64,000 bases of DNA from Amoebophrya sp. A120 (GCA_905178155.1 CAJINV010000010.1:1308451-1372450), one strand, 5' to 3'. Numbered from the stretch's first letter, positions 3,898 to 60,896 are shown. The notes: a model not told the origin generated them from the sequence alone. Program-made: numbers and translations.

Positions 3898-6800
3898 ATG
3901 GCCTCGACGCAGCAGGCCCGGCGTCTTGTCGCGGGCGACGGCCCGCAGATTGCTTCTTCCAAGCTTTTCCCAAACCCAAAGGAGTTCCAATGCGACCAGA
4001 ACGCGGACTACTTGAAGAAGAGGTTGCAGGTGTGGGAAAAGGTGAAGGCCAAACACGAAAAGGCTGTTGCCGCTATTCCGAAAAAGCAAATCACCATCAC
4101 CCTGCCGGACGGGAAGCAGGTGCAGGGAACGAGCTTCGAAACCACTCCTTTAATGATTGCAGAGGGGATTTCCAAGAAACTAGCCGGGGACATTGTGGTG
4201 GCGAAGGTAGTAGAATTGGATAGTTCGTGCAGCTCTTGTATGGTCTGTGCATGACAATGACCAAGCACAACTCTGTTGCGTACTATTGCGCATGAGAAGG
4301 ATGGTTCGTAGTTGTCAACAAACCTATATTATAAGGTCTACTACACCGAGCCCATCGCCTCTTTAACGCAATGCGTCGCCGCGGATGAAGAGCCGGACTC
4401 CGATGCTGACGGATCTGATGACGAAGACGCGAAGGAGGACAAATTTGTTCTGTGGGACATCAGCCGGCCACTGGAGGGGAATTGTACGCCGGTGGTTCTT
4501 TTTGTGTAGTGGATGACTTCTGCAGCTCTTTGCCATTGGTAGCTTGAGGCGCGACCGCCCGTTGCTGTTCATCATGCTTCTGGAGCATGACAATTTGAAT
4601 TTCAACAATTTGCAGGTGCGGAATGTTCTTTGCCAGCATCACTAAATTTTGTTCTATAGGTACTCTCCACCTTTTGAAATTTGAGGACAAGCTTGCCTCC
4701 AACGTGTTTTGGCATAGTTCCGCTCACGTCTTGGGAGAAGCCATTGAGGTCGAATTTGGGGCGCACTTGACCATCGGGCCACCCTTGGAGCGTGGGTTTT
4801 ACTACGACGGCTTTTTCGGCGAGAAGAAAATCTCCACGACGGAAGACTTGCCGAAATTAGAGAAGCGCTGCCAGGAAATCGTGAAGGAGAGCCAGCCGTT
4901 TGAGCGGGTCGCCTTAAGCAAGGAGGACGCTCTGGAAATGTTCGCGGACAACCCGTTCAAGGTGCAGTTGATCACGAACAAAGTCCCGGATGGATCCATG
5001 ACCAGCTGCTACCGCTGCGGGCCGCTAGTCGATTTGTGCCGCGGGCCGCACTTGCCGTCCACGGGTAGATGCAAGTCCTTCTGGATCCACAAAAACAGCG
5101 CGAGCTACTGGTACTGATAATCTTCTATTTTGCATGCGACTGACGCTGATTTTCTACTGTTCCTGGTAAAAATAGTGATTCCATGATACAATGCCTTGTG
5201 ATTGTGTACGTGTACGACCTGCACTTTCAACACTTGGCGTGAAAGATAAAACCAGAAGCACGATTCACCACTTCCACCTAGGTTGGGGAAAGACAAGAAC
5301 GACTCCCTCCAGCGCATTTACGGTGTTTCTTTCCCCTCCGACAAGGAGTTGAAGCAGCACAAACTGATGCTGGAAGAAGCCGCCAAGCGCGACCACCGAG
5401 AAATCGGGCGGAATATGAACTGCAAAAGTATCGTACTAGTATAATTTGCATCACAAATCTTGGCAAGAAGAAGAGTGGAATTTGTAATGCTGTGTTACCT
5501 TAGAAAGGAGATTTGTAATGCATATTTGCAATTAGTACAAGTGCGATAGGTTTACACAGGATACGGAAGCAGGAGCTCTGGTTTTTCTCCGACTATTCCG
5601 CCGGGTCCTGCTTCTGGATGCCGCACGGCGCCCGGATCTACAACAAGTTGGTGAGCTTCATGCAGCGGGAGTACGCCATTCGCGGGTTTCAGGAGGTGAT
5701 CACACCAAACTTGGTGCACGAGAGTCTCTTCAAGGCTTCGGGGCACTACTACAAGTACAAAGACGACATGTACAGTATGAACATCGAGGGGGAAAGGTGG
5801 TTTTTGAAACCGATGAACTGCCTATGAGAGTGCACAACCCTCCCTCCCCCTCATGTGTATGGCATGAACAGCAATACAAGCAACAGCAGAAAATGGGCTT
5901 TCGCATGACAAATCTGCATGCGGATTGTAGTACTATGTATAGTTTGTCATGCTAACAGCGCGTACGAGCAAGGTGCGAGTTTGGTACTTTGCATTACAAA
6001 TGAGGGGGAGGGGGAGATGTGCACTGTAATACTGCCCCGGCGACTGCGTCATCTTCGGGCATCGCGTGCGGAGCTATCGGGAACTACCCTTGCGGATGGT
6101 TTCCTTTGGCGTGCTGCACAGAAACGAAAACAGTGGGGCGTTGAGTGGTAGATCTAAAATGTGCTGGCTTGAGTATTTTCTCTCTGTCAACATGATAAAC
6201 AGAAAACATCATTTGGAATAGTTGCATAGCATGTCGTATAGAAGTCGCGTGATCATGTTTTGATGCTTCAGCCGAAACTAAATAGCGAGATCCCTGTATA
6301 TACGTTTTAGGTCTGACCCGCGTCCGTCGCTTTCAGCAGGATGACGGGCATATCTTCTGCCGGATGGACCAGGTGAAGAGCGAAATCAAGTACGCGCTCG
6401 CTTTCGTGCGGTTTGTGTACCAGACGATTGGCTTGGAATACACGATGGTGCTCTCTACCCGGCCGAAAAAAGCCATTGGCTCTGAGGAGGTGTGGACGTA
6501 TGCGGAGAAGGAGCTTGCCGAGGCTCTGAACGAGAACGGTGAGCCCTTGGGCTTGAACAAGGGCGACGGGGCGTTTTACGGACCGAAGATCGACTTCAAA
6601 GTAGAAAATGAGAAACCGTGAGTTACAAATTTTCTTACCGTGAATGTTGGTAGATGAAGTACAACACGATCTAATTTAGGCCAGTTTCAAGCTTCAAAGC
6701 CGACAATTCCATAGCAAAGCTACTCAAAAAACAAAAAGTTTAAAACCGCACCAAACAACTTCTTTTCGTCATCTTCAGGCAAAAGACGCCCTGGGTCGGC

Positions 6801-9726
6801 AGCACCAATGCGCGACGATGCAACTGGACTTCCTGTTTCCGATGCGATTCAACCTCCAGTTCCGCACACAGGCGGACGAGCAGAAGGAAGCTGGCGAGCA
6901 GGCGGCTTTGGGTAACAAGGAAGGAGACAAGACAACTGCAGTTCCTCCGAAAGGCAAAAACGCCGCTTCTGGTGCCGCTGTTGCCATAAATGGGAACGCG
7001 GCCGCGCTGGCCTCCGCGGACGGGGACTCGGCGGGAACCAAATCCGCTGTCGACAAGGAGAAGGAAAAAGAGGCGAAATTGGATATAACCCGCTCAGGTG
7101 TTACAATCTCAAACGTTGCAATAGAGTATTGAAATCTGTGATGCAAGATTGCATGATCTAGCCAAGTCTCATAGGCTTGCGCATGACAAGTTCCAGAGCC
7201 CCAAGCCCCACTATAATCTCGCGAGATTTGTATTGCAAAAGGTGGAAAGCTGTGCGAGTCTGTCATGCTCATCATGCAGCACAAATTCCACATTCTATTG
7301 TAACGTTTGAGATTGTAACGGTTGAGCAAGTCATATTGGAAGCGTACGGGTTGGAGGGCGTCTTGAAACCGGGGCACGAGCGACCCGTGGTGATTCACCG
7401 GGCGATATGGATTGCAAAAGTGCCTGGGTCTGGAAGATTGCAACTTGTCATGCTAAATCCGAATCATGCAGAAATCTGTGTTGCATGACCGCCAAAAGCT
7501 GCCCACTTTCGACCATCTTTGGAAGAAGTTTCTCATGCAGGATAGGCATGGCAGAGACCTCACAGACTCTGTCATGCTAGGTCCCGCATTCCAGACCTCA
7601 TGGGTCATGAAAAACCTGCATGACAAGTTTACACTTACTTTTCCAGACCCAGACACTTTTGCATTTGATAGGCGATTATGGGATCGGTGGAGAGGTTCAC
7701 AGGTAGGAAATAGCAAGGATTCGAATTCGTACTAGTCCTAGTCGTGCTGCTTTACGGCCTACATTTATTTTGCATCATAAGATGAAATAGAATGAAGATG
7801 AGCATAATCTTCCGACGAGTTGTACCGCAATTTATAGATGATGCATGTTCATCAGCGCGTTCTTTATTTCTATCGCACACAAACACAAACACAAACTCAT
7901 ATAACTCATAAGTACGTACCAAACATACAGGCATCCTGTGCGAGCACTACGGTGGTAAGTGGCCATTTTTCCTCAGCCCGCGGCAGATCTATCCTGAGTA
8001 AAAACGTACCCACCCCAGAGTTGTCATGCAGATTTGCCATGACAGGAACATTTGTGATGCGCAACCCCATGACAGGCATTTTCAATCGTGTTTGGGAACT
8101 TGTAATGCTGTAAACAGGATCAGGAGGTCGATTTGTGATGCGGCTTTCCTTGCTAACTTGCACTACCTTACGGACTGAGACTTGTCATGCGTGACTCCTA
8201 AAGCTCCTAGGTTTGTGTTGCAAAATCCTCATCCTGACTCTGGTGTGGGTGCGTTTTTACTCAGGATAAGATCATGATCGTCCCCACCCACGCCGGCCTG
8301 AACAAGTACTGCGAGTACGTTATGCATTGCAAAAGTATCGTACTTCCAGTAGGTGTAGGAACACTCGCATTACAAATTTCCCCAAGAACAAAAATGGAAC
8401 TTGTCATGCTAGATCAGCTACAAGATTCGATTTGTCATGCAGGACTGCAATTGCCAAGAATCCGATGTTTTTGCGATGTATATTCATCGCGGAGCAGTAC
8501 CGCAACTTTGGTCTTTTCGCCGACGTCGACACCAGCAGTAAGACCATGAACAAGAAGGTCCGGGAGGCCCAGCTGGCCCAGTACAACTACGTTGCGATCT
8601 GCGGGGAGAAGGAGCAGGAAAACTTGTCAGTTAATTTGCGGGACCGGGACACGGGGAAACCGGTCGGGGAGTTCGGCTTGAATGATTCGGTGGACATGTT
8701 TGTCGCGAAATCCAACCCGAACAGCAAACCAGCGAACCAGTTTGACGCGTTTGAGGGACGCGTGCCGAAGCCGGCTAGTGCGGGAAGTAGTAGTTCTACT
8801 TCATCATCTGGAACAGGAACATCAACTGGAACTGCGACGAACTTCTCTGTGCAGAAGACGGACAACGACAAGAAGACATCTGCTGCCACTGCGGAGACCG
8901 CTGGCGCAACATCCACGACGAGCAACAAGAAGGAAAATCAATCCAGTATCAGAGGCAAAAATCCCCCCTCCCCATATCGAACAGGTATGCTTCCGAAAAT
9001 TTGTGTTGCTGATTTGAGGTCACGAATCTCGTTTGTCTTGCAAGAAGACAAGGGCAGAAGCTTCCGCCTCATTATGGAATTGATTTGTCATGCTGTTGGG
9101 CCTAAAGGCAAAGGGGAGGCGTTTGCCATGCTGAACAACTAGAGGACCCATACGCCCCTACCTAGCCTGGGGATCTGGCCGCAGGAGTGCCTCTGTGCAA
9201 TACAAACCGGATTTGCGTACACAAATCCAGCATCAGAAATTCCGTTTTGATATGGGGAGGGGGGATTTTTCCTTTCGATATCCAGCAAGAAAAACTGGGA
9301 GGCGCACTTCGCGGAGTTCCCGTACGCTGAGGGGTTTGAACTGTCTGAGACCGATAAGATATGCATTGCAAACATGTCTGATGAATCTGGAAGGATGCAA
9401 GGGTTGTCATGCTTGTCTAGCATGACTGAAGAGTTTGTGCTGCGTGTCCAAGAAGAGACCCTTTTGTTTGTCATGCAAAACGCAGTTTGTCACGCGGAAA
9501 GCGCAACACTAAGAAGCGCAAATATTTCTCATGCTTCGCTGTGCAATACAAAGAGTTCACTATTCACAATTCAGCATTACAAGTTTCCTTTTCCAGACCC
9601 AGACATATTTGCATTTGATATAAGAAACTCTTCGACGACTGCAACAAATCCGGGATGCCGAGCTCCGAGAATTTTCAGCGGTGGTTCGAGCATGTGGGGA
9701 GCTTGGTGCGGGCGGGACGCTGCTGA
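3898..9726 (+). CDS. TARS: Threonyl-tRNA synthetase, eukaryotic cytosolic type, copy 1
   Basis: TGS domain (ITITLPDGK), editing domain ([17 protein letters not shown]), core motifs [48 protein letters not shown], and anticodon domain ([13 protein letters not shown]). GT-AG introns: 4207-4335, 4484-4659, 5111-5281, 6148-6310, 6601-6778, 7703-7930. Also 8 introners. TGA at 9724-9726. Confidence 0.95.
5414..5563. mobile_element. Introner family B (150 bp)
   Basis: TSD CGGAA; TATGAACTGCAAAAGTATCG...CAGGATA; absent from ThrRS copy 2. Confidence 0.9.
5823..6031. mobile_element. Introner family D (209 bp)
   Basis: TSD CTGCC inside the KPMNCP motif; TIR with AGTGCAC and CTCCCCCTC. Confidence 0.9.
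7084..7335. mobile_element. Introner related to family F (252 bp)
   Basis: TSD TTGGA; ~40-bp imperfect TIR containing GTTACAATCTCAAACGTT. Confidence 0.88.
7406..7670. mobile_element. Introner family A (265 bp)
   Basis: TSD GGCGA inside IHRAI; same TIRs as the element at 869. Confidence 0.9.
7990..8268. mobile_element. Introner family C (279 bp)
   Basis: TSD AGATC; TIR TATCCTGAGTAAAAACG...CGTTTTTACTCAGGATA. Confidence 0.9.
8321..8482. mobile_element. Introner family B (162 bp) with decayed right TSD
   Basis: Left TACGT, right TTCAT; TATGCATTGCAAAAGTATCG start; paralog reads EYVAEQ without interruption. Confidence 0.85.
8947..9280. mobile_element. Introner, singleton (334 bp)
   Basis: TSD TCCAG; TIR AAAAATCCCCCCTCCCCATATC / GATATGGGGAGGGGGGATTTTT. 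Confidence 0.88.
9360..9620. mobile_element. Introner family A, subfamily A2 (261 bp)
   Basis: TSD TAAGA; close sister of the element at 20743. Confidence 0.9.
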
Positions 9727-10978
9727 AACGGAAATGGCAATATGCTGTCTTCTTGGTACAACAACGTCAACAGCTTCGGGTCCTTTGCCTTTCAGATACG
9801 GCAAGGAAAATTTTTACAGCAACTGAAAAACTATGTTAAAAACGAGGGCGCCATGTGGTTGATAGATGAAATGACAGATACGGTTACGGAGAACAACCTT
9901 ACCTAATCATGCAACTTCTGAGGGAGGTGTTGTAGTTGTAGAGCCCCCTTAAAGAAACAGATAGAATGAAATGGTTTTTGACATTCGATGAAAATGAAAA
10001 TTTGTATTCGACCATCTCGTTCTTGAGAGGTTTCCGATGAATGTAAAAGGTAGACTTTCGGTCTTTTTGGTGAATGATATTGATTTTGCTTTGCGGGTTG
10101 CTGACGTGACAGACGCAGCGAAGATCCGAGAAGAATATACTTAGCTTAGTAGAAGTGGCGGATAACTGTAAATACGCAAAATTTCGAATAGAGCAACGAG
10201 CTCCGCATCACATGATAGAGTGGTTTTGTATAAAGTTGATGTCGGACGAAAGTAGTTAGGAAAAAAAAGAATTGAATAAATTTGGTTGACCACACGAGGA
10301 TTTTCCACGAAATGGTTTCGAACGATGATCATGATATCAATGGGAAGAATTAAGTCTCGAGCAAGACAGGCAATTGAAGAGAAACATTTATAGCTGTCCC
10401 GAGAAACAGAAACATGACGAAGCTGTCAGCAAAAATCAAATCAGCCGGTGGCATGCGCTGCTGGTGTTGTTGTTCAGCCACATGTGTATCACTACGAAGG
10501 ATCATCCCGAACAAACTTTTTTACAAGGAAAGATCATCATGTTGATCATCAGATCAGCTTGCATTGTTTCTACTTTTTGCCCGGACAATACATGTAGCGA
10601 ATTTAATCGCATCCAGTAGAAGATCTATTACCATCGCAAGATCGCAATCACTTTATCAAAGCAAGAAATTATTCCTACGTACATGAACATGGAACGCACG
10701 GTAAGAATTGTTCTTTGCGTTCTAAAATCTTCAGGCACTCCGGATTTGCGAAAAGTTAGATTTTTGACCTTTTATTTCGTACCCATAGTACGTTCGACGC
10801 ATTAGCATTACCCATACATTACACTTGCATCCACCCTAAACTTGTGCGTTTGATGTCCTAACAAGAAAATTTCTCAGAAACACCCCACGACATTCACATT
10901 CACCACCAAAGAACCTAAAAGATTCACATTTTCCACCGTCAAAGGCGTTTTTACGTCGCCACCGCACTACAACAAGCC

Positions 10979-13900
10979 ATGGCCACGACGCAGCAAGCCC
11001 GGCGTCTAGTCGCCGGCGACGGGCCGCAGATTGCTTCTTCCAAGCTTTTCCCGGATCCGAAAGAATTCAAATGCGGACAGAATGCGGAATACTTGAAGAA
11101 AAGATTACAGGTGTGGGAGAAGGTGAAGGCAAAACACGAGCAAGCGATCGCGAAAATCCCAAAGAAGGAGATCACGATCACACTGCCGGATGGCAAGCTG
11201 GTAAAGGGGACGAGCTTTGAAACCACGCCAGAATCGATTGCTGTTGGGATATCGAAGAAGCTGGCAGAAAAAATCGTCGTGGCTAAGGTACTGAGTGTTC
11301 GCGAGTAGAATCATGATCTTCACTTTGCTTTATGCAGAAGTGTGCCCGTGATGTGGTCTTCCTTTCAATCGGCGTCTACTACCGAAGAAAGCACGCGTTT
11401 TCATTTTCCGCATGACAAGCTAAATCACATTACAAAATCAGGTCTATTACTCCGAGACCATTGCGTCACTGTCTCAAGTAGTAAACGCCGATGAGGAGCC
11501 AGAGTCTGACGAGGATGGGTCAGATGACGAGGATATCCTGAGTAAAAACGTACCCACACCATAGTTGTCATGCAACTCTGCATGCTTAAAATGTTTCTCA
11601 TGCGGAGCCCCATGAGAAGCATTTTCTAATGCGGTTTTGAAATTTGTCATGCTCCAATCAGCACGAGATACTAGATCTGTAATGCTGCTAAACTAGCTTA
11701 AACAGCACTACACTACGCGGAGAAACTTGTCATGCCAAACAACCAAAGCTGGCTGATTTGTCTAGCAGATTCCCCATCTTGACTCTGGTGTGGGTACGTT
11801 TTTACTCAGGATAGAGGAAGACGCTAAGGACGAGAAATTTGTCCTCTGGGACATCTCGAGACCACTGGAAGGAAACTGTATTCTTGCAGCACTTCTTGTT
11901 TTTCAATTCTAACTCGCGTTGATCACTAAGCTCGGGGGCGTACTCCGCGTTGATCACTAAGCTCGGGGGCGTACTTATTTCCGGCAAGCTTTAATGCATT
12001 TCGCAAAGAAGCGAGCCGCCGGGCATTCAAGCCTGGGGCCTAATTTTTCTGTCCGACTTCCACGATCCTCAAGAGGCGACGGGGATAGTGGTTGTTTTCG
12101 TCGGGGGCTAAGGATTCTCTCCAGCTCTTAGGAAGTATCTTTTGAACGCCAAGCGTGAGGGTGGTAGCGCGAAGCGAACCCCAATTGAACTTCCCTTCAC
12201 TGCTAAAACGGGTGGTGTTGCGTCGTTCGAGATGCCTGGCTCTCAATGCAATCCAGAGCAGATGATTAGCCTTCAGAAAATTTAAGCGGTTATTAGTGCA
12301 GTTTCTGGCTCACCTAGGTAGCTCCTACAGTACCGAAGAAGCTTGTGCTGAATTGTTTTTCAATTCTGCACACCTTGGCTGCGTGACAGAGTTTTTTTTT
12401 GACGTGCATGCATTGCTTCTGGTTCTTTGCACTTCAACAAGCTGCTCTACTTTCTCGAGGCGCCTGTTTGCAGTGCTTTTCTGTAGTAGGTACAACCAGA
12501 TGAATTCATTTGTATTGCAAGACGACCATGAAGATCATGATCAACCGGCACGGAAATCATATCAGGCACCCTCCACCTCCTGACGTTCGACGATAAGCTT
12601 GCGTCCGACGTTTTCTGGCACAGCTCCGCTCACGTGCTGGGGCAGTCGATCGAAGTGGAGTTCGGAGCGCACTTAACCATCGGGCCCTCGTTGGAGAAAG
12701 GGTTCTACTACGACGGTTTTTTCGGAGACAAGAAAATTTCCACGACGGACGACCTGCCGAAATTAGAGAAGCGTTGCCAGGAAATCGTGAAGGAAAACCA
12801 GCCGTTTGAGCGGGTTACTCTGACCAAAGAAGACGCGCTCGAAATGTTCGCGGATAACCCCTTCAAAGTGCAGCTGATCACGAACAAAGTGCCGGACGGA
12901 TCCATGACCAGCTGCTACCGCTGCGGGCCATTAGTCGACTTGTGCCGCGGACCGCACCTGCCGTCCACGGGAAAATGCAAGTCCTTCTGGATCCACAAGA
13001 ACAGCGCAAGTTACTGGTATCATCTTTATATATCACGATGGTGTATGTTGTAGGTTTTTCTTGCAGCGAGTTTGAGACTTGCATGAAACTCAAGATGAAC
13101 ATGAAAGACGAATAAGTTGTTTTACCATCGTACCATCGGCTTCATCGTGTCACATAGGTGTGACGTCAATTATACCGATCTTTGTCAACAACAGTCCTCT
13201 GCGTCTGCGCCATGGCATGCGAGATGCCTATTTGCGTGGCACCGCACGCCTTTTCGCCACCGCACGCCCACGCCCACCCCTGCCGCCCCAGCTGCGCATA
13301 GCATGCTCGTCGCTCCGCTTTACGCCGCGCCGCGCTGTCTAAAACCAAAACCGCAACGCTGCGGTAGCAATATGTGCTTCCCAAAACGAACAAAATGCAA
13401 ACTCTAGGGAAGGAACTACAGCAACAAAACGAAAAGCATCATCTTGTTCCTCCCGATCATCCAAAACAAAAGTAGGCAAGAACCGCCCGAATGATCAAAC
13501 TAACGAACTACACAACTTCACCACAACAGGCTGGGTAAGGATAAGAACGATTCCCTCCAGCGCATCTACGGTGTCTCCTACCCCTCCGACAAGGAACTGA
13601 AACAGCACAAGACACAGCTCGAGGAAGCGGCTAAACGCGACCACCGGGAGATCGGGAAAAAGCAGGAGCTCTACTTCTTCTCCGACTTCTCCGCCGGCTC
13701 CTGCTTCTGGATGCCCCACGGCGCCAGGATTTACAACAAGTTGGTGGAATTCATGCGCCGGGAGTACGCGATTCGCGGGTTTCAGGAGGTGATCACGCCA
13801 AATCTGTACCACGAGTCTTTGTTTAAAGCGTCCTATGCATTGCAAAAGCATCGTACTAGTATAAATCGCAATACAAATTTTCTCAGAAGGAGAAATGGAG

Positions 13901-16381
13901 TTTGTAATGCTGATTTGGCTAAGAAACAAGATTTGTCATGCATGATTGCAATTAGTACTAGTGCGATACTTTTGCAGAGCATACGTCCGGACACTACTAC
14001 AAGTACAAAGACGACATGTACAACATGGACATTGTATCAAACAAAAAAGTGTTAACGTTAACGGTTTTCATAGATTGCAAATATGCATGACACATTTTGC
14101 CTAGCATGCGTGCTATGCATGACAAATTTGGGCGCGTTTTGTGATGCGTTACTGCATCACAAATTCCGTTGACGTTAACGCTTTTTCCTGTGATACCTTG
14201 AGGGGGAAAGATGGTTTCTGAAGCCCATGAACTGCCCAGGGCATTGCGTGGTTTTCGCGCACCGCGTGAGGAGTTACCGGGAGTTGCCGCTCCGGATGGC
14301 GTCCTTCGGAGTCTTGCACAGAAACGAGAACAGCGGGGCGTTGAGTGGTATACTTTTGTAGCCAGGGTTTTTTTTCTTTGACGCGAAGGAATGTGTAGTC
14401 AAATCAAAGTCGTGCACACTGTGCTGCGGTCCAGGAGGGGCTTGTTGAATGCTTGTATTGCGATGCTTTCTCTACTAAGTACGGGAGTACGAAATCCGTC
14501 TCAACATACAACTCGCACACCCAACCAATTACCAGGTCTGACCCGTGTCCGGCGGTTCCAGCAGGACGATGGCCATATCTTCTGCCGCATGGACCAGGTG
14601 AAATCCGAAATCAAAAACGCCTTGAAATTCGTGCAGTTCATCTACGAGACCATCGGTTTGGAGTACACCATGGTCCTTTCCACCCGCCCAAAGAAGGCAA
14701 TCGGCAGCAAGGAAGTGTGGGCCAACGCGGAGAAGCAATTAGCAGAGGCTTTGAACGAAAGCGGACTCCCGTGGGGGCTGAACAAGGGAGATGGGGCATT
14801 TTACGGACCGAAAATCGATTTCAAGGTATGTCGAGTTTTATTGGGATAGATTTTCAGATCCTTTTCGTTACATCACACAACATCTCGTAGTTGCTAAAGT
14901 TACAAGTTAGTATGCTTGTCGTTGTCACGCCGCATGTTGACACCAAAATCGGATTCTCATGATAGTGGCGTCAGGCTCACAAAGAAGATCAATCAATACT
15001 AGCGTCAAATATCATGCTTGTGTACATTCGATTGTGAACTCCCATTACCCCAGGTTAAAGACGCGATCGGGCGTCAGCACCAGTGTGCGACGATGCAATT
15101 GGATTTCCTTTTCCCGATGCGTTTCAACCTGCAGTTCCGCACGCAGGCGGACGAGCAGAAAGAAGCCGAGGCTGCCAAGGCCGAAGGAGAACAAGCACAG
15201 GCAGCAGGAGCTGCTCCGAAGGAAACCAAGGAGAACAAGAAAGACAAAAAAGCCGCTGCTGCTGCCGCTGAGCCGAAGGAACCGCGAGCGTCTGCTACGT
15301 CTGCAGATGGCGGTGCACCAGCGGCGGATGCTGGAAAATCTGCTGCCGACAAGGAGAAGGAAAAGGAACAGAGAATGGAAGCGGTTGGGTTGGAAGGTGT
15401 GCTGAAACCCGGTCACGAGCGGCCGGTCATGATCCACCGTGCCATTCTAGGATCCGTGGAGAGGTTCACAGGTACTGACGTGTAAGGGAGTCATGTAAGT
15501 TAAGATCTAGTGAGGTTTTTTCTTTGATGATGCAATAAACAATGTTGCGCTTCATCTACAACTGAATTGAAAGTGCAAGTGCTGTCTGCATGAAATCCAC
15601 ATCCAAATCAGGTATCCTGTGTGAGCACTACGGCGGCAAGTGGCCGTTCTTCATCTCCCCGAGACAGGTGATGATCGTCCCGACGCACGCTGGTTTGAAT
15701 AAGTACTGCGAGTACGTCGCCGAGCAGTACAAAAACTTCGGCATCTTCGCTGACGTCGACACCAGCAGCAAGACCATGAACAAGAAGGTCCGGGAAGCGC
15801 AGCTGGCCCAGTACAACTACGTTGCGATCTGCGGGGAGAAGGAACAGTCGGCGTTGGCGGTCAACTTGCGGGATCGCGACACGGGCAAGCCGCTCGGGGA
15901 GTTCTCGATTAAAGATTCCGTGGAGATGTTCGTCGCGAAATCCAACCCGAACAGCAAACCTGCGAACCAATTTGACGAATTTGAGGGCCAGAAGCCGGAG
16001 CCAATCGGCGCCGGGAAAAATGGTGCGTCTTCAAGCAGCTCCGCAGCTTCTTCTGCATCAAAACCAGAAAAGTTATCCGCGGAAACAGCAGGTGCGTCGA
16101 GCAAAAACGACTCTACTACTTCGAAGGAGACCACTGCAGCTGCTGGAGGTGCGAAGAACAAGAAGCAGGAACATCAGAATAATGGTGAGAACAACAAGAA
16201 CGGGGCAATAAAGAAGGATTGGGAGTCGCACTTCGCACAGTTTCCGTACGCTGGCGGATTTGAGATGTCCGCGACAGACAAGAAATTGTTCGAGGAGTGT
16301 AAGGGCGGCATGCCGAGTTCGGAGAATTTTCAGCGGTGGTTCCAACACGTAGGAAGCTTGGTAAGAAGTGGGATTGTGTAG
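10979..16381 (+). CDS. TARS: Threonyl-tRNA synthetase, copy 2 (tandem paralog)
   Basis: Same motifs as copy 1, with KPMNCPGHC intact. GT-AG introns at the same codon positions: 11288-11441, 11878-12565, 13017-13529, 14348-14535, 14826-15053, 15472-15611. Three introners. Confidence 0.95.
11534..11813. mobile_element. Introner family C (280 bp)
   Basis: TSD GAGGA; near-perfect TIR TATCCTGAGTAAAAACGTACCCACACC. Confidence 0.9.
11911..12352 (-). mobile_element. Probable 5'-truncated non-LTR retroelement fragment inside a GT-AG intron
   Basis: Exact 15-bp direct repeat TTGTTTTTCAATTCT at 11896-11910 and 12353-12367; ~31-bp tandem repeat at the left end; the equivalent intron in copy 1 is only 176 bp. 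Confidence 0.55.
13834..13983. mobile_element. Introner family B (150 bp)
   Basis: TSD CGTCC inside FKASGH. Confidence 0.9.
14035..14195. mobile_element. Introner, singleton (161 bp)
   Basis: TSD CATTG/CCTTG; TIR with GTTAACGTTAACGG / CCGTTGACGTTAAC. Confidence 0.85.
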
Positions 16382-19632: not shown

Positions 19633-22600
19633 ATGGACGCTGCCACCACGACCCTCACCCCCGATCAGGAGGAGCAGCTCACCCTGTTCCGGGAGGTGAC
19701 GGCGAACGAGGACCGACAGCGATGTATCCAGTACCTGGAGATGAGCAACTGGAATGTGGAACAGGCCATCAACTTGTCCATGACCGGCGCATTAGACAAC
19801 ACACCAGCAACAGGCTCCGACCACGCGGCCGCCATGAACTTCATAACCGGCGACCACGAACCGGCAATAGGACCACAACAGCAGACCAGGCCGAGTGGGG
19901 GGGTAGAGCAGAGCTTCTTTTTGTTGAGGATGATAGATGCATGATTACTTGTCTTCTAGTTGGAGATCGTTGGATGGGACATACTACCTGTCTTGCGCGA
20001 TCAACATCGGGTCGTGCAGCTGTTCTATAACCCGCCGTGCGGTGCTTCAAAGTAAGTAAATGTAAATCGACACTACAAGAGACAACAATACAATATGCTC
20101 AGTACAAAGAAACAACTCAAACCAGGACCCCGACGCATCCCTCGCCCAAAAAGTGGTCGAGAAGGTCGGCAACGTATCCTGTGCAAAAGTATCGTACTCG
20201 TATTGCAATCATGCATTACAAACTTTTTTCTCAAGGGAAAACAGCATTACAAATTTTATTTCTCATGCTGAGGGAATTTGTCATGCATTTATACGAATAC
20301 GATACTTTTGCAGTTCATACAACGCCGCCAGCAAGGTACTCAACGGCATCGGCGGGTTTCTGCACTCCATGTTGATCCCGGACGAAGTATGAACTGCAAA
20401 AATGTCTGGGTCTGGAACATTCTAAACTTGTGATGCTGTCTCTGGATTCTGAAAAAATTTGTATTGCATGACCAGCAAGAGGGCTCCAGTTTGTGCTACG
20501 CAGAGCGGTCATTTTTCATGCTGTAGAGGCATCACAAAGCGCTCTAAAAATCTGTGATGCTACGGCATGCATCACAGACATCATGAGCCATGGAAAATAT
20601 GCATGACAAATCTAGAAATCTTCCAGGCCCAGACACTTTTGCATTTGATACGATGACGGGTATAACAACAACACCTCCGGCGGAAGTAGTTCCAGCAGCA
20701 GCAGTGGTAGAGCGAACCGGAACAGTTTCAAAGCGTACTACGTATCAAATGCAAATGTGTCTGGGCCTGGCAGATTGTTTGTCATGCTTGTCTGGCATGA
20801 CTGAACAGTTTGTGATGCGTGTCAAAGAAGAGACCCGCCTTGTACAACTTGTCATGCAACAACGCAGTTTGTGTTTGTCATGCGGAAAGCGCAACACTAA
20901 GCAGCGCAGATATTTCTCATGCTTGGCTGTGCATTACAGAGCATCCACTATTCCCAACCCAGCATTACAAGTTTCCAGAACCAGACATATTTGCAATGCA
21001 TACTACGAGCGACAATACAAGACGGACGCTTCGACCGCCTGCCCGGACTTTTTCGACGGAACGTTTCAGCAGGCAATAACGAAAGCGAAGGACAACATGA
21101 AACTCCTTATGGTCTACTTCCACTGCGAAACCGCAAGTTTGACCGACGACTTTTGCAAAAACTGTCTCAACAACGACATCGTGACAGTGATGTTGAGTGA
21201 CACGTGCGTCAGCTTCGGGGCCGACATAAACGACCGGACCAGTTACGACTTGGCAAGGCAGTTTCAGGTATTTGTTTTGTTCTTGTGGACGCGGACGTCG
21301 TCGTGTTTGGCTGCATGACAAAAATGCCAGAATTGACGACCGCCTGCAAAACGAGTCGTGATACATCATGAACGTGAAGGAAAGTAAACAGATTTTTACA
21401 AGCTACACGACTCATGTGCACCATGAATCACACAAACAAACTTCATGACTTTTCAGGTTCAACGCTACCCGTACCTGGCGCTGGTGCTTCCCGTCTCCGC
21501 AACGGACTACAGGATACTTCACAAAGTCGACGGGCAGGTATGAAAATGAAGTTATTTGTGACGTTGCATGACAAAGTGAAGACACAGAAGTGGCGACGAT
21601 AGATTTGCCATGCTATGCTGAAAGAAGAAGTAGATGCAGTGCTGCTCATACGACTTTGATTATTTTGTGATGCAAATCATGTATCCAAACAGCAAGCCGG
21701 ATCAGTTGACGGCCTCGTCGCGCTTTTGACCCAAGCCGCCGACGACCTGGAGCAAAATCGTATCAAGTGTAAAAGTGTCTAGGTCTGGAAGAATGCATGC
21801 TTGTCTGGCATGCTTGTCTGGCATGACTCGAGAATCTGTGTTGCATAGGCACGAAAAAACCCTCTGGCCTGTCATGCAAAAGCGCAGTTTGCCATGCGGA
21901 ATACGTAAGACATGGCAGCCAAAAAAATTGTCATGCATGTTATCATGTCGTACTGCAGTGCGTCTATCATTATTTTTAGCATATACAATTTTCCAGGCCC
22001 AGACATATTAGCAATCCATAAACCGGGCCCAGCTAGTAACGCAAGCGAACCAAGTTCAGCACGACAGGCTTCTGCGCGCCGAGCAAGACAGGGAGTATGA
22101 AGAGGCTTTGGCGAAGGTACAGTGTGGCTGGTTTGTCATGCAGACTGTCAATGCATATACAACAGCGTTGTCCTCCTGCTCCTCACGAGTGCGCAACACA
22201 AGTTTTTTTCTGAAAAGAATCTTCCTTGATAAATTTCATATCACCTCCTCCACAGGACCGCGAAGCCGAGGCCGCACGGCAGCGGGAGGAGGAGGCCCGA
22301 CAGAAGGCGCTGGAAGAGGAAAAACAGGCCCAGCTCGCCAGGGAGCAAGCGGCGAAAGACATCGAGGCGAAAAGGAGAAAACTGGCGACCGAACTTGTCA
22401 CTGTGGACCCAAGCACGACGGAAGCCAAGACGAAGATACAAGTGAAATTCCCGACGGGGCAGAGGGTATCTTTACTTTACTAAAACTAGGAATGAATTTG
22501 TTTCTATTTTCACCACTTGGGTCAACGTCGTCATGCGGTACCAGCATGCTAGGCGAAGTGGAAAGAAATCAGGCTTTGTCTGTTGCAACATGACAAATTG

Positions 22601-25346: not shown

Positions 25347-26354
25347 ATGGGCAAGAAGCGCATGAAAACCCTCTCCGACCTCAAGGTCGCCATTATCGGA
25401 GATGAACAAACCGTGACCGGGTTGTACGAGAAAGAAAACTTCTTGAGTTCCGGCCGCAAAGTTTGTATCTCTATTGCATAAGCATGACACGCGTTTGTTG
25501 AAGATGATTTAGAGTTGCACCTGCAGAAAAAAGGCATTCCTGAACAAGAACAATTTGTGTGTAGTAGTCCGAGGACTCAAGACTTCGCTTCCATATTCTA
25601 GTCTTGGGCGGTGGTGGCATGGTCGATGGGCAGGGGAAGAAGAATTTCATGGTCGTCGACGGCGCAACGCGGAATCACGAGGTATAATAGAGACAATGTT
25701 TTAATACGACGATACCAAGTACGACTAAACTTGTGATGCAGCACAATCTGAATGACATAGTCATAGAATCGATGCGGATGCCACTTCATTTTCATTCGAA
25801 ACAAAAACCTCAGATCGCCGAGCAGTTTCAGGAGTGGACGACGCGGAAGGATCTCGCCGTGATCCTGATCTCCCAGACGGAGGCGGGAAAGATCCGAAAC
25901 GTCGTCGACGATTTTGCCCGCAGCGGGCAGGTGATCCCCGCGGTGCTGGAGATGCCGACCAAGGACGTCGCTTACGACCCAAAGAAGGACTATGGAAGCG
26001 TCAGGTTTGAAATCGTCAAAGTTAAAATAGTTTGGCACGCATAAAATCGATACCGGTTGGAAGCCCAATTTCCAAGCGGCGCATGACAAATTTTCGGAGT
26101 ACCGGAATCCAATTTGTCATGCTGTTTGGGCACAGAAGACTGCTTTTGTCATGCTTGTTCAGAAGCTCTATCCCAAACCCTAAATAGGCTCACAATCTGC
26201 CTCGCTTGCCTTCCCGGCAAGACAGGCACTTCATGCCTTGCATTTTATGCATGACAAATCATTACAACTTTGACGATTTCAATCCTGACAGATCCATAAG
26301 GACCCGATCATGCAGCGCGTGCAGATGTTCTTCGGAAGCAACCCGGTCATGTGA
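25347..26354 (+). CDS. ATP6V1F: V-type H+-ATPase subunit F
   Basis: MGKKRMKTLSDLKVAIIGDEQTVTGLVLGGGG...KNFMVVD...RKDLAVILISQ...IPAVLEMPTKDVAYDPKKDPIMQRV. Removed segments: 25425-25600 (non-canonical), 25682-25813 (GT-AG), 25991-26303. Confidence 0.92.
25425..25595. mobile_element. Degenerate (old) introner
   Basis: TAC...ATA ends; residual inverted repeat TCTTGAGT/ACTCAAGA; TSD lost (GGTTG vs TTCTA); the adjacent GT...AG join gives the wrong frame. Confidence 0.65.
25991..26298. mobile_element. Introner family G (308 bp)
   Basis: TSD AGGAC; TIR GTCAGGTTTGAAATCGTCAAAGTT / AACTTTGACGATTTCAATCCTGAC. Confidence 0.9.
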
Positions 26355-27249: not shown

Positions 27250-30200
27250 ATGCGCAACCCCACATCAAGCACGTCCACCGGCAATCCCCGCCTCGGCGGG
27301 GACGATGACGAGGGGCCGATCCTTGTGGACCGCACCGAACATGTCATCGACGAAACCACAACTGCGCTGGAAGACGAGGAGCTGCTGCTCCAGCAGGAGC
27401 GAGAAGAGCGCGAGCAAGAGGAATTGTTTCAGAAACAGCGCTCGGCGGACAGGGGCAGTAGAACTGGTGGCGCACCAGCCAAAGGCCCAGGAGGTACTAC
27501 CAGTGCTTCGGCCTCCAGAGAGTCCTCGAAGCAGTTTCCTACTGGTGGTAGTGCTGTCGGACTCGGGCAGATTTCAGATGGAGACAGTCAGCAGCAGCAG
27601 TTGCAGCAACTATCTCAATCTGGGTCTCCCACAGGGGCACCGGATCACCACCCTCTGCTTGATGGGCAAATAAAACTGACCCAGCAGCCGCTTTCCGACC
27701 ACGATTCAGGTGAGTCTACCACTTCCGAAGACCATTTAAACGATGTTTTTGAAATCCGGGATTTCACCGCCGTGTCGCCGCTGGAAAAACTCTCTCGGGA
27801 GCTGCAACTGATCGTGAAAGGCTGGAGCAGCCACTTCAAATCTACCTCGGGATGTTTGACGTCCGTGGTAGATTGCCGGGATACCGCACAGTGTTTGAAA
27901 TTGTTGGAGCAGATGCGGAGAAATAGTGGCGGAACTTTTAGTGCCGCTGGCGGGAAAACATCAGCAAACATCGCGAAAACAAATCAAAATCTTCCATCGC
28001 CCGCGGCTTCAGTTCTAATCGACCACCAGGAAAAGGAGTTTAAAGCTTTGACCCTGCAATTCCAGCAAGCGCTGCAGTTTTACAGCGAGCACAAGTCGTC
28101 GCAGGGCCGGATGATCGCGAGATTTCGGTTCAACAACATGAAATACCACCTACATGTGTACTACGGCCGCCCGGTACCGCTGAACGTGACGGATGAGCTG
28201 TTTCATCGGTTTACGAATCATATAGCTGGTGGTGGTGGTGGTCTTCGTCTTGTTGTTGGCGGCGGGCCCACAACGACAGGCGCTGCTAAGTCGTCCACTG
28301 GTATAATCGCTGCTAGCTCTAGCGCAACATCAACTGCCCCCGCCTTTCCACCGGTCCTGAAAGAGCTCGCGGACCTACTCGCGCAGGAGCAAAAATTTCC
28401 CGTAAAGTGCCACCCGAATACCCGGAGATTCGGCGTCCGGCAGTTCATCATGGTGACCCGGGAGCGGGTACCAAATGCAAAAATGTCTGGGTCTGGAAGG
28501 TTGGAACTTGTGATGCTAACTTTGGAGTCCAAAAAAATTTGTATTGCATGACCAGCAAGAGGAGTCTAGTTTGTGCTACGCGGCGGGGAGGGCGTTTGTC
28601 ATGCGGAGTAGGCATCAGCAAGCCCTCTAAAAATCTGTGATGCTAGGGCGTGCATTACAGACATCCTGGGTCATGCAAAATATGCATGACAAGTCTCAGA
28701 ATTATCTTCCAGACCCAGACACTTTTGCAATCCATAGAGGGAGTCGCAGGAAATTTCAAACGACTCCGCGAACTTTCTCCTGTCCGCGATGCTGATTGCG
28801 TATGAACGCCTCAGGTTTGAAATCCTGAAAGTGGAAATGATTTGTAATGCAAAAAAACGATTCCAGTTGAAGTGGCATTTGTAGTCGGCGCATGACAAAT
28901 TTCCCGGGCACTTAAAGCGTGTCTGTCATGCAGCTCAAGGCAAGGGGGGGCCCTTCTGTCGTGCTAAGCAGCACTCCAATTCTTGACCCCTAGCAGGACA
29001 ATAGTCAGCCTCCATTGCGTTCTCTGCAATACAGTCTTTTTTGCGTCGCATTTCATGCATCACAAATCATTTCCACTTTGAGGATTTCCATTCTGAGGCT
29101 TTCATATTGCGGTGCGAGCGGCGTTTCCGACCGCCGGGTTCAAGAGCCTGGAGTGCGGGAGGAAGGCAAGGGGTGCAGTACAACTAGCTGCGTCGAGTAG
29201 TCGTGGCCCCGGGGCGAAAGCACTGAATAAGAATAATATTAAAGCGGGTAGAACAAGAACATCTACATCTTCTTCAACATCACCCGCATCAGGAACTACG
29301 ACTATTGCAGTCCCTACTACTTCTTCTTTCTCCGACACTGCCCTGGACATCCCCTGTTTTGTGAACCAAAACCCGGGTGAGGTATGGATTGCAAATATGT
29401 CTGGGTCTGGAAGATTGTCAGCTTTGTCATGCATATTGGGCACGAGGACCCATGACGCCTGTAATGAATGACCTAGCATCACAGAATTTCAGAGGGCTTT
29501 CTGATGCCTTTTCCGCATGAGAAATGCCTTCTCCGCATAGCACAGACTGGACTCCTCTTGCATACAAATGCTTCGCGGGTCCAAAGATAGCATCACAAGT
29601 TGCAACCTTCCAGACCCAGACATAATTGCGATGCATATGAGGGGGTAAATGGCAAAACGATCGGCGAGGGGTTCTTCCTTCTCCCCGACAAGAAGACGGC
29701 TTTGCGTCGGAATTTTCTCTCCTGCGCGCGGTCGAGTAGACACGTAGACCCGCTACTGAAGGACCTACCCGGATTGCTGATCTTCTGGGAAAGTTTGAGA
29801 AATAAGGTGCCGAGGGAGGTCAATTTGAAGTACAGAAAGGACTGCACTTGGACGAAGGCGGAGCATTTGACAGAGCTCTTTCACGCTTGTTCTCGTACGG
29901 ATGTTTCTGGTGCAGCTACGGTTGCATCTTCATCTACTGCTGCATTTATGTTCCCGCAACTGCAGCAACCAGTTGAAAACTATACAGGGAAGACCTCCAA
30001 ATCTCTTACCCCAAGGGAATTAGTCCGCGTCCAGCACGGCCCGCAGATTCGCGCCCGGTTTGTGTACCTTATGGCGCTCTCAACTGTTACATTCTCAACT
30101 GTTACTTACATGAATTCGTGATGCAAGAATGGCAACAGTAAAAGGGGCTAGCTTGCTGCTTTCGCATCACAGATTTGGCACAGATTTAGGCGCTGTTGAG

Positions 30201-33200
30201 TCCTTCGGAAATTTGTCATGCGAAGCAGCTTGATTATCTGTCGGCTTAAGGTAGTTCCGCATGACAAATCATGTAACAGTTGAGAATGTAACAGTTGAGA
30301 ACGCCATATACCTCTGCGAAGAGTTCGACGCCATGAACTATGACCCAATTGTGGGGAAAACTTTGGAATTGATGCAGTTGTTCTGCCTCTGGGGACCGTT
30401 TTCGAAGGGGGACTACTTTGGCACCACGGGCATGTATGATGAGGAAGATGAAGTAGAGCTAGTGCTGTCCTCATCTACGGCCGCGCAGGAGCAGGAGGAG
30501 CCGGGTTCCTCGCCTCAGAAATCACCTGCCGCTGGTCCTGCTGTGGTTCCAGGCGGTGAAGACTTACCCGTAGCACCAGTGCCCGGAATATTAACCACGG
30601 ACAGAGTAGATGAGCAGGATCCAGACCGGGGCTTAGCAAACCACCTGCTGGAAAAAGAAACTACGTCAAAAACCACTTCGAGCAAAGGGAGTGATCCTGC
30701 TGAAACAGTTACACTTACAGCACCACCGGCAGATTTTTCGCCAAATAAACCTGCCCCACCACCACCTCCACCCCCGCCTCCGCCGCCATCGTCCCTCCCG
30801 GCAGCGACGAGAACGAACCAAGATGACACAAAAGAGCAGAGACCGTCCGTCGCGTCTTCTGTGCCCTCAAATTTGAGCAGATCTCAACAGCAACAGCAAC
30901 ACCCTCCCAACACCGACGACGAGGAAGAGGATTTTCTGAACCCGTACAAAGCCCAAGTTTGGCAGTTCCGAGTGACGTGCACGGAGGCGGAGAAACGGCG
31001 AAGTTGGATCCGAGAGCACATCGAGTACTTCCTGGATTTCGAATCGGAAACCTCGGACACAGAATCCCTCACCCAGTTTCTCGGTACGACCACTGGGTCG
31101 ACCGCTAGCGGACAGAGACTGAAGAACCAGAACACCGAGCAGCAAACGGGCTTTGGGTTAACCGCGTTAGGATTGCATCTCGCCAACGCGTACCAGGATT
31201 TCATTTTACCCTCGGAGAACGAGCAGCTGAAGATTTTGGACTCCTGTTTCACGCGGATAAGGTCCAACACGGATGCTATCGTGTATGACCAGGTCATGGA
31301 ATTGTTTCACCAGTATGAGTCACAGTGTATCGACACCCGACGCATCGTGTCCCAGGAAAACCACAACTTCCGCGAATCGGAAAAAACGGAAATCCTGGAG
31401 GACTGGGAGGGACACAGCTACAGGAGTTTCGTCGACGCATTAGAGTCGACCCTTGGGGGACTGTGTATCGAGGCAGATGTTGATAAAGATAATTTGCTTG
31501 AAAAGAGCAGAAGTAAAAGCAATTCACCTTTTGAAAATAGAGCTGAACGAAGTGGAAGTGCACCTCCATCTGCGACAACAAGAGGAGCGAATATGGTGTC
31601 AACATCAACCAGCACTCGCTCTTTCACCAGCACTCTCCGTACCTTGAACGACCTGCACAAGATTACGCAGACTAGTTTGAAGGGCGCGCCGGCGATTCTC
31701 TCCACTTTGTTAGAGGAGATTGTGGTCCGGAAGGGGGTTTTGAATTTCCGTTATGCATTGCAAAAGTATCGTACTCGTATAAATGCATTACAAATCTCCT
31801 CAGCATGAGAAATGAAATTTGCAATGCTGATTTACCTTCGGAACAAGATTTGTATATGCATGACTGCAATACGAATACGAGTACGATACTTTTGCGCAGG
31901 ATATCCGCGCCATCTGCACCATGTACTTCAAATTAGTGCAGAGAATACGGCTTTTCTGGTATCCTGAGCAAAAATGTACCCACCCCAGAGTTGTCATGCA
32001 GATTTGCAGCTACAGGAAGATTTGTAATGCGCATACACATGAGAGGCATTTCCAATCACGTTTTGCGCTTTGCAATGCTGTCGACAGGATGAGTAGATGG
32101 ATTTGTGTTGCGGCTGTGCTTGCTAAACTGCACTACAATACCTCGACGAACTTGTCATGCTGGACCCCCAAAACTTCTCGATGTGTGTTGCAAAATCCCC
32201 ATCTTGACTCTGGGGTGGGGACGTTTTTGCACAGGATATCTGGAACGAACGACTCCTCAACGGGGCCAGCGCTGTCGCGTCGAAAGCTGCAGCAGATGCG
32301 CAGCCGGGGGCTGGAGTGGGAGGAGCGGCAGGTGCTCTTGGTTCCGAGCAGCAGCAATTTTCGCAGCCCTGGTTTGTCACTAATGATCTTGGACAAAGAA
32401 TATCTCCACCGACGTTGGAAATAGATGAAGACGCAGCAGCTGAAGCGAAGCTCACAGCGAAACGGAAGCGCCGCGCTCTCGCGGACTTGGGCTTGCGAAG
32501 GGCAAATGTGACCGATTTCCAGAATTGCTTGCTCTACCAAAAGTTTCACGTCGTTTTCTACTGCATTGAAGCGGAAAAATCAGCTTCGAACAGGAGGGGA
32601 CTGGAAGACTCCGTGGAATTCATCCGGAACTTGTCAGCTACGTCAAGTTCAAGTGGCACGACAACTGGTGCCGGAGGAGCCATATTAAATGGAATACAGA
32701 CAGGACTGAATACGCCAATGTCCAGCACGACTGCGCCCGATACAACACCCGGACGGGAGGAAACAAATTACTCTCCTCCCGTCAGCGAGAGAAGTGACCA
32801 GCATCAGCCGCCGTCGTCCGCGAGTTCTGGCATCGTCCATGTGCAGCATGACAATGTGCCCCCCGGCGGCGGCGGGTTGCAGCTACCGGAAGGAACAAGA
32901 AGCGGAGACAAGAAACAAACCGCAACGACGAGAACCACGACCCCAGAACACCAAAATCGTTCGAAAACGAAAATCGAGGGCGGGATTTTGGAAACTGCAT
33001 TCTTTTCGCACAGTAGTAGTACTACCTCGTCCGGAATAGTGAACGCTACCTCTGGAGCTTCCACCGCGAGAAACAAGCACGACAGAGGTAGCTCCTCGAC
33101 CAGGTCTAGTAGTTCAACGAGCATCAAGCGAATGAATAAGCGAACTGCAGCCCCAGAACAGCAATTTCCAGTAAAAAAATCCACCGACATCCCCATCGCC

Positions 33201-54667: not shown

Positions 54668-55195
54668 TGTTAGTGGACTTGAGAACACTCGCACACACTT
54701 ACACACGTTTGCTCCACTGAGCTCGTTATCAACAGCAGTTCAATGAATTCTCTCAATTGCAAGAAAGCAAGCAAGTGACGCAAGTCTCTTGCTACGTTAC
54801 ATCCTGTAGGTTCAATTCATCCAAATTCATCACATTCATATGGACCAAACCTGGTCAGAGTCAAGTGGCCAAACAGCAAGGGAGTCCACTCCTCAACCTG
54901 CTCAGATTGGTGCTCGACCCTGGTGGGAGTCAAGTCCCCCAGGGTTACCATTCTGAACGTCTGGACCGAGCTGAGTCCATTCATTTCACTACGATCCTGA
55001 TGGCTTTGCCTTCGTAGTATTTGGGGGATTCGCGGAACATGGTGAAGAGTTTCCTTTAGGATCTAGATAGATTCTGACCATTTCCCTAAGGATCTAGCTA
55101 GTTCAGGTCATTCAGAGCTGTCATTTCATTGAGGAACAGGCGTCATTTGGGGCGATCGTGTTACGCGTGTGTGGGATCGATTTCCATGACCAACA
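54668..55195 (-). repeat. 3' LTR
   Basis: About 6 mismatches by eye to 60369-60896. Confidence 0.95.
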
Positions 55196-55288
55196 CCCCT
55201 CCTCAATCGCTGCGGCGGTGGTGCTAACCTGGATAACGTCCTACCGCACTCCCCTCCTGAACGCGCTGTGGTAAACTAGCTACCCTCT

Positions 55289-60311: not shown

Positions 60312-60368
60312 CTTCAATCTAACTTATCTGACTAGAAGAGCCGGCTTGAGTCTCAAGGCGTAGCGTAG

Positions 60369-60896
60369 TGTTAGTGGACTTGAGAACACTCGCACACACT
60401 TACACACGTTTGCTCCACTGAGCTCGTTATCAACAGCAGTTCAATGAATTCTCTCAATTGCAAGTAAGCAAGCAAGTGACGCAAGTCTCTTGCTACGTTA
60501 CATCCTGTAGGTTCAATTCATCCAAATTCATCACATTCATATGGACCAAACCTGGTCAGAGTCAAGTGGCCAAACAGCACGGGAGTCCACTCCTCAACCT
60601 GCTCAGATTGGTGCTCGACCCTGGTGGGAGTCAAGTCCCCCAGGGTTACCATTCTGAACGTCTGGACCGAGCTGAGTCCATTCATTTCACTACGATCCTG
60701 ATGGCTTTGCCTTCGTAGTATTTGGGGGATTCGCGGAACATGGTGAAGAGTTTCCTTTAGGATCTAGATAGATTCTGACCATTTCCCTAAGGATCTAGCT
60801 AGTTCAGGTCATTCAGAGCTGTCATTTCATTGAGGAACAGGCGTCATTTGGGGCGATCGTGTTATGTGTGTGCGGGATCGATTTCCATGGCCAACA
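60369..60896 (-). repeat. 5' LTR
   Basis: Direct repeat of 54668-55195. Confidence 0.95.

Follow-up and report, generated by a model that had tools for sequence, protein, structure and literature searches.

Private inverted-repeat elements in the exons of an old tandem pair of threonyl-tRNA synthetase genes of Amoebophrya sp. A120, probably gained after the gene duplication

The origin of introns is an old question, and the dinoflagellate parasite Amoebophrya represents an extreme case in which most introns are devoid of splice-site sequences and many are transposons. Here we describe two threonyl-tRNA synthetase (ThrRS) genes of Amoebophrya sp. A120, located head to tail on the plus strand of a 64,000-nucleotide stretch of the genome (GCA_905178155.1, CAJINV010000010.1:1308451-1372450). 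This whole stretch is called the window, and positions are counted from its first nucleotide. The closest described system is formed by the non-canonical introns of the same organism. Farhat et al. (2021, BMC Biol 19:1, PMC7789003) reported that more than 60% of the introns of A25 and A120 are non-canonical. A subset, termed introner elements, carries inverted repeats of 8-20 nt and direct repeats of 3-5 nt; Fig. S19 of that paper shows an example of 5 bp. In A120 the inverted repeats begin with TAT, followed by about seven variable bases and a run of at least three A. Repeated introns number 29,850 and make up 17% of the A120 assembly. Introns at positions common to A25 and A120 are 98.6% canonical, while the introner elements are strain-specific, their spread probably postdating speciation. 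The same paper gives the exact intron borders as unknown owing to the repeats, reports that no transposase was found in A120, and remarks that non-canonical introns favour less conserved genes. More recently, Gozashti et al. (2025, PMC12130899) listed A120 among the richest introner genomes and described A120 introner families with inverted repeats and with open reading frames related to Copia/Gypsy integrases.

The ThrRS pair contains eleven insertions that we regard, with high confidence, as hairpin-forming inverted-repeat transposons of the A120 introner type, which likely entered the exons of already duplicated genes with 5-bp target duplications, and eight of which are cut exactly from transcripts without GT-AG ends. 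Removal of six GT-AG introns from each gene, together with eight insertions from copy 1 (3898-9726, plus strand, 15 exons) and three from copy 2 (10979-16381, plus strand, 10 exons), leaves each gene with one open frame, of 943 codons in copy 1 and 961 in copy 2. The resulting proteins of 943 and 961 amino acids are, letter for letter, the deposited sequences P0002 (copy 1) and P0001 (copy 2), both named 'unnamed protein product [Amoebophrya sp. A120]' and encoded on one 3.95 Mb contig; the gene models are already public. All eleven removals are required to obtain the deposited proteins, which according to the methods of Farhat et al. (2021, PMC7789003) were built with transcript data.

The six GT-AG introns occur at the same alignment columns in both copies (103, 153, 303, 469, 566 and 707) and in the same phases, which are, in order, 0, 1, 2, 1, 0 and 1. 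Intron 1 spans 4207-4335 in copy 1 and 11288-11441 in copy 2, intron 2 spans 4484-4659 and 11878-12565, intron 3 spans 5111-5281 and 13017-13529, intron 4 spans 6148-6310 and 14348-14535, intron 5 spans 6601-6778 and 14826-15053, and intron 6 spans 7703-7930 and 15472-15611. The eleven private insertions, which are 150-334 bp long, are found at eleven different columns: 347, 432, 676, 698, 727, 742, 906 and 931 in copy 1 and 133, 405 and 420 in copy 2. No element column coincides with any junction in the other copy, and at each site the paralog has a single 5-mer. A first-pass annotation made from the sequence had claimed just this arrangement, namely six common GT-AG introns at identical codons, eleven introners divided eight to three with none in common, an uninterrupted site in the paralog each time, 5-bp target-site duplications and open frames in both copies; the alignment bears it out for all six introns and all eleven elements, and the frames agree with the deposited proteins.

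Each insertion consists of an element and the downstream copy of its repeat, all on the plus strand. In copy 1, IE1 (5414-5568) combines a 150-bp element (5414-5563) with the repeat copy CGGAA, IE2 (5823-6036) a 209-bp element (5823-6031) with CTGCC, IE3 (7084-7340) a 252-bp element (7084-7335) with TTGGA, IE4 (7406-7675) a 265-bp element (7406-7670) with GGCGA, and IE5 (7990-8273) a 279-bp element (7990-8268) with AGATC. These are followed by IE6 (8321-8487), with a 162-bp element (8321-8482) and a decayed downstream copy TTCAT (upstream TACGT), by IE7 (8947-9285), with a 334-bp element (8947-9280) and TCCAG, and by IE8 (9360-9625), with a 261-bp element (9360-9620) and TAAGA. Copy 2 carries IEA (11534-11818; 280-bp element at 11534-11813, repeat copy GAGGA), IEB (13834-13988; 150-bp element at 13834-13983, repeat copy CGTCC) and IEC (14035-14200; 161-bp element at 14035-14195, downstream copy CCTTG, upstream CATTG). 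IE1 belongs to the family of IEB (79.5% identity) and IE5 to that of IEA.

All eleven elements start with TAT and end with ATA, and in nine of them, IE2 and IE3 being the exceptions, AAA is found at positions 11-13, as expected for TAT, seven nucleotides and an A run. A flanking 5-bp direct repeat is present in all eleven cases and is perfect in nine; including the imperfect repeats of IE6 and IEC, 52 of 55 positions are identical. Between 17 and 29 of the first 30 nt are complementary to the other end without gaps. The first 25 and last 30 nt form a hairpin of 15-25 pairs in every element, with the first and the last base as the outermost pair in seven of the eleven. Fold z-scores range from -2.7 to -11.0 for the elements, compared with -1.3 to +1.1 for the canonical introns (10 of 12 folded). 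GT..AG borders were found in none of the elements across eight registers examined; they are not GT-AG introners, a point that the first-pass annotation had not noted. Splicing at GT-AG sites internal to the elements was also rejected, as IE5 would keep 17 extra bases and IE8 an in-frame stop.

Related sequences are common. Eight of the eleven elements have relatives elsewhere in the window with 68-83% identity, and a strict scan of the window, using TAT...ATA ends, a perfect 5-bp repeat and at most three mismatches in a 14-nt inverted repeat, returned 16 elements and none in each of five shuffled sequences. The summed DNA word depth in element bins reaches 10^3-10^5 as compared to about 42-51 in unique parts, and 11,845 DNA contigs match the 13.5-kb stretch with a likeness of at least 95%; word depth and contig numbers of this size indicate that the element families are very abundant.

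Sequencing data matching the region comprised two DNA-like sets (X1 and X2) and four RNA-like runs (X3-X6) from one sample. Removal of the elements was examined with the latter, mapped on positions 6780-14347 at 99% likeness. The RNA-like runs contain about 45% of the words, as expected for spliced transcripts. In all four runs, transcript contigs skip 257, 270, 284, 167, 339, 266, 285 and 155 nt, which correspond exactly to IE3, IE4, IE5, IE6, IE7, IE8, IEA and IEB, in each case the element plus one repeat copy. The same contigs also skip the 228-nt intron 6 of copy 1 and the first three introns of copy 2 (154, 688 and 513 nt); because these ordinary GT-AG introns are absent as well, the contigs derive from mRNA. 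For intron 2 of copy 1, one transcript record of run X3 extends from 4203 to 4660 with 151 letters between, which fits exon 2. No joint for IEC was among those listed, and the bin 14117-14347 was without cover at 99% likeness. The removal of IE2 and of introns 4 and 5 from copy 1 would fit a 1094-nt contig, provided that its first 40 letters map to the paralogous place; this reckoning differs from a listed joint and takes the backward joint (14032 to 6780) to mean that 40 letters of a copy 1 contig were placed on copy 2. For IE1, IE2 and IEC, removal is supported by the restored frame and by the agreement with the deposited proteins. Spliced transcript contigs exist for both genes and have separate ends, those of copy 1 reaching to about 10396-10400 and those of copy 2 starting from 10733-10740, so each copy is expressed. 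Two raw RNA runs with the same species label (X9 and X10) gave only 4 and 40 reads, which were partial and all on element sequence, and are uninformative on expression.

The duplication itself is old, with silent sites near saturation. Of 940 aligned residues, 766 are identical between the proteins, and the copies differ at about one nucleotide in five. Alignment of the spliced coding sequences gave a nonsynonymous divergence (dN) of 0.11-0.13 and a synonymous divergence (dS) of 1.04 (LWL85), 1.53 (NG86) or 1.81 (maximum likelihood), with dN/dS around 0.06-0.12. In 36 sliding windows of 50 codons no defined dS was below 0.5, and 11 windows were saturated and without a value; among the 25 windows with a defined dS, none had the low value that would mark a recent conversion tract. 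When the genes were compared by BLAST only the exons aligned, with no alignment between the copies for any corresponding pair of shared introns or for the upstream regions. A tree was built from 60 ThrRS sequences, the first 60 by identifier among 94 database matches with 700 or more residues. It groups the two copies as sisters (Shimodaira-Hasegawa-like approximate likelihood-ratio test 100); their common stem measures 0.5, and the tips measure 0.11 (copy 1) and 0.065 (copy 2).

Both copies look like working enzymes under purifying selection, judging from their sequences. The TGS domain, the second additional domain (tRNA_SAD), the class II core (tRNA-synt_2b) and HGTP_anticodon all score above the Pfam cut-offs in each protein. 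At 196 near-invariant columns, conserved in at least 95% of 151 other ThrRS sequences, copy 1 keeps 191 residues and copy 2 keeps 192; three of the departures, five in copy 1 and four in copy 2, are common to both. One that is confined to copy 1 is H434D, an Asp within the MNCPGH stretch (around 6040-6042) where copy 2 and 96% of the 151 sequences have His. With this substitution, its longer branch and its eight elements as against three, copy 1 fits the remark of Farhat et al. (2021, PMC7789003) on less conserved genes, as a single case.

The proposed course of events is as follows. After the ThrRS gene had been duplicated, short non-coding inverted-repeat transposons would have inserted into coding exons of each copy separately, each insertion generating a 5-bp target duplication. 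In the transcript, the terminal hairpin would bring the exon ends together and guide the cut, as Farhat et al. (2021, PMC7789003) proposed, and the element would be excised with one repeat copy so that the frame is restored. We infer that the elements were gained after the duplication rather than removed by eleven precise losses: eleven elements are unshared and none is shared, and the 5-bp duplications are intact while the duplication is old (dS 1.0-1.8), which argues for later insertion.

The opposite history, in which the elements were already present in a single ancestral gene and one copy or the other subsequently lost each of them precisely, through transposon excision, conversion from the paralog or recombination with cDNA, we consider unlikely. 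A precise loss would also leave one 5-mer, and the empty sites by themselves give no polarity; moreover, dS varies from 0.5 to saturation along the gene, which leaves room for old conversion tracts. Such a history requires, however, eleven precise reciprocal losses with no element remaining in both copies. Loss through cDNA is disfavoured because it should strip adjacent canonical introns, and all six are kept in both copies. Of the 55 repeat positions 52 are intact despite the near-saturated silent sites and the shared introns that no longer align, no low-dS window marks a recent conversion, and the elements are strain-specific throughout the genome according to Farhat et al. (2021, PMC7789003). 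Insertion after duplication, as the first-pass annotation had proposed, is therefore the better reading. The annotation also spoke of dating the introner invasion; what stands of this is a relative order, after an old duplication, and not a date.

Several points weigh against gain after duplication and removal from RNA. The polarity is drawn indirectly, from comparison of the two paralogs, and Farhat et al. (2021, PMC7789003) stated that they were unable to distinguish gain from loss when comparing orthologs. The argument from intact repeats assumes that nothing constrains the downstream copy; were the repeat required for excision, selection could keep it intact, and it would then be no measure of age. 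With relatives in the window no more than 68-83% alike, the window by itself does not establish that the eleven ThrRS copies are young. The RNA identity of the four runs is a guess, and all four come from the same sample. Removal was seen for eight of the eleven elements, IE1 and IE2 lying outside the mapped part and IEC having no joint. Finally, the DNA-like run that connects the two genes is possibly the assembly's own source data, in which case its support for their order is not independent. Outgroup sequences were sought in protein searches covering proteins of 262-2000 and 528-1682 residues, in which no ThrRS of A25 or AT5 was among the best 120 of 6125 and the best 120 of 7959 matches. 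A metagenome scan gave 13 loci, with no close genomic relative among them; the best (L001) has 62% identity in its best segment and is probably a transcript, to judge from its gap-free match over the whole 3-kb contig.

Two further explanations concern the level at which the elements disappear and the reality of the gene pair. Ciliate internal eliminated sequences have TA-rich ends and are excised exactly, with one repeat copy kept. The ThrRS elements seem to resemble them in all these respects, and since the RNA label of the runs is a guess, the elements might be eliminated from the DNA of the expressed nucleus. This we hold to be very improbable. Besides the elements, GT-AG introns are missing from the same contigs, and there is hardly any coverage of the long canonical introns of copy 2, so the contigs derive from mRNA. 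DNA contigs at single-copy depth (42-47) cross element-exon borders at 5998-7109, 9594-11557, 12900-13860 and 14166-14807; repeat joints filled the joint listing for the DNA run, in which rare excised DNA would not show. Farhat et al. (2021, PMC7789003) validated such introns by comparing RNA-seq with the genome. There is equally little reason to believe that the tandem pair is an artefact of assembly or that one copy is a decaying pseudogene. Copy 1 would be the candidate for decay, given its larger number of elements, its longer tip (0.11 versus 0.065) and H434D, but it retains 191 of the 196 near-invariant residues, and dN/dS is low. A difference at one in five nucleotides is not that of one locus assembled twice, one DNA contig spans 9594-11557 without mismatch and reaches from the 3' end of copy 1 into the first exons of copy 2, subject to the reservation on its source made above, and the two genes have separate spliced transcript contigs, each with its own end.

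The position of the cut can be read from the elements with decayed repeats. A perfect repeat leaves the joint ambiguous over 5-6 bases, whereas the differing copies of IE6 fix it within one base: the skipped segment is 8320-8486 or 8321-8487, with borders of TT..CA or TA..AT. In the mRNA, TACG(T) is retained as the upstream copy and the downstream copy is lost with the element, so that the cut must lie at the first base of the element or one before it, and after the downstream copy or one base short of its end. For IEC the evidence is indirect, in that the deposited copy 2 protein reads ...MDIEG..., which requires the upstream repeat copy. These two are the informative cases for the register.

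A feature shared between unrelated elements is the 9-mer TTGTCATGC, which occurs 52 times in the window (28 on the plus and 24 on the minus strand) against 0.68 expected, for example at 5944-5952, 7445-7453, 8021-8029, 8401-8409, 11565-11573 and 13933-13941. The eleven elements, 2.5 kb in total, contain a degenerate form of TTGTCATGC 39 times, and those with it include elements that are otherwise dissimilar to each other; the degenerate form is found four times in 3 kb of canonical introns and not at all in 5.7 kb of coding sequence. Exact copies are present in three canonical introns, namely introns 1 and 2 of copy 1 and intron 1 of copy 2. Farhat et al. (2021, PMC7789003) do not give this string in their main text. 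Its possible roles are that of a binding site or of a unit from which the internal hairpins are built.

The register and the 9-mer together suggest a mechanism that we put forward as speculation, with more doubt than trust. Removal would be measured from the hairpin, one cut falling on the stem's first base and the other five bases past its last, and TTGTCATGC would be the recognition site of an element-specific factor; removal would then be guided by structure, and splice-site sequences would not be needed. The cut in the RNA would in such a scheme reproduce the 5-bp stagger with which the element entered the DNA, and every such intron would comprise the element plus the downstream repeat copy. 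Elements with decayed repeats throughout the genome offer a direct route for testing structure-guided cutting.

No transposase is encoded inside the elements because 150-334 bp leaves no room for one, and a partner transposase was not identified: when 16 other long frames in the window were compared with Pfam, a single mobile-element protein was recognised, a Copia-type reverse transcriptase. It belongs to a Copia-type long terminal repeat retrotransposon at 54669-60896 on the minus strand, with a 1163-codon frame containing RVT_2 (E 2.7e-26). The direct repeats of this retrotransposon, about 530 bp long, differ at seven positions, or fewer if the ends are trimmed to TG...CA, and its flanking 5-bp duplication GGTAA has the same length as those of the introners. 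Additionally, the window harbors eleven more TAT...ATA elements with perfect 5-bp duplications, located at 869-1130, 20743-21002, 25991-26298, 28801-29106, 29383-29637, 30070-30308, 31960-32238, 34186-34338, 48348-48566, 52984-53225 and 53293-53501. Most of these sit between or within long plus-strand open frames that have no Pfam match.

Some other features of the two genes were observed. Following a low-complexity linker, both proteins end in a conserved tail, comprising residues 885-943 or so in copy 1 (9286-9723) and approximately 905-961 in copy 2 (about 16200-16378). No Pfam match was obtained for the tail of either enzyme; it is reminiscent of the start of elongation factor 1-beta and of the glutathione S-transferase-like domains appended to some synthetases. 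The metatranscriptome contig mentioned above matches residues 8-955, and the tail is perhaps common to relatives. The sole one-codon indel in the N-terminal acidic stretch lies exactly at the insertion site of IEA (11529-11533; codon 133-134 of copy 2), where copy 2 reads DDEEDA and copy 1 DDEDA, which may be chance in a low-complexity run. Within the 688-bp intron 2 of copy 2, a unit of about 30 bp (GCGTTGATCACTAAGCTCGGGGGCGTACT) is present twice in tandem at 11915-11975.

When compared to described systems, the elements are similar to miniature inverted-repeat transposable elements in their length of 150-334 bp, lack of coding capacity or open reading frame, terminal inverted repeats, target duplication of fixed length and high copy number; they differ in sitting in coding exons, where they are tolerated through removal from RNA. 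The non-conventional introns of euglenids also have no conserved border dinucleotides, and their ends are paired in a stem. These introns are not known as transposons with target duplications. Euglenoids are named by Farhat et al. (2021, PMC7789003) among the lineages with non-canonical introns. The spliceosomal introners of Micromonas, Aureococcus and Polarella (Gozashti et al. 2022, PMC9860276; 2025, PMC12130899) are likewise non-autonomous inverted-repeat transposons that create target duplications and new introns in exons. Unlike the ThrRS elements, for which no GT..AG register exists in any of the eleven, spliceosomal introners carry or co-opt canonical splice sites, as cited by Farhat et al. 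(PMC7789003).

No published account of the A120 ThrRS pair was found in the literature on Amoebophrya introners or threonyl-tRNA synthetase. The A120 introner elements of Farhat et al. (2021, PMC7789003) are the same in organism, TAT ends, 5-bp repeats, hairpins, absence of GT-AG ends and large copy number, and are also absent from conserved canonical intron positions, with no difference in kind. Earlier work has thus already described this class of element with its 5-bp repeat and hairpin, as well as its recent and strain-specific spread; the ThrRS pair is a local instance and the gain in knowledge is incremental. What the locus adds is a set of eleven paralogous empty sites, intact repeats set against saturated silent sites, exact removal of eight elements from RNA, the register of IE6 and the common 9-mer. 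With its old shared GT-AG introns next to eleven private elements with empty paralogous sites, the pair is a clean internal control, and it provides a compact, expressed test locus for element removal, in which eleven elements of several families are combined with a fixed register at IE6.

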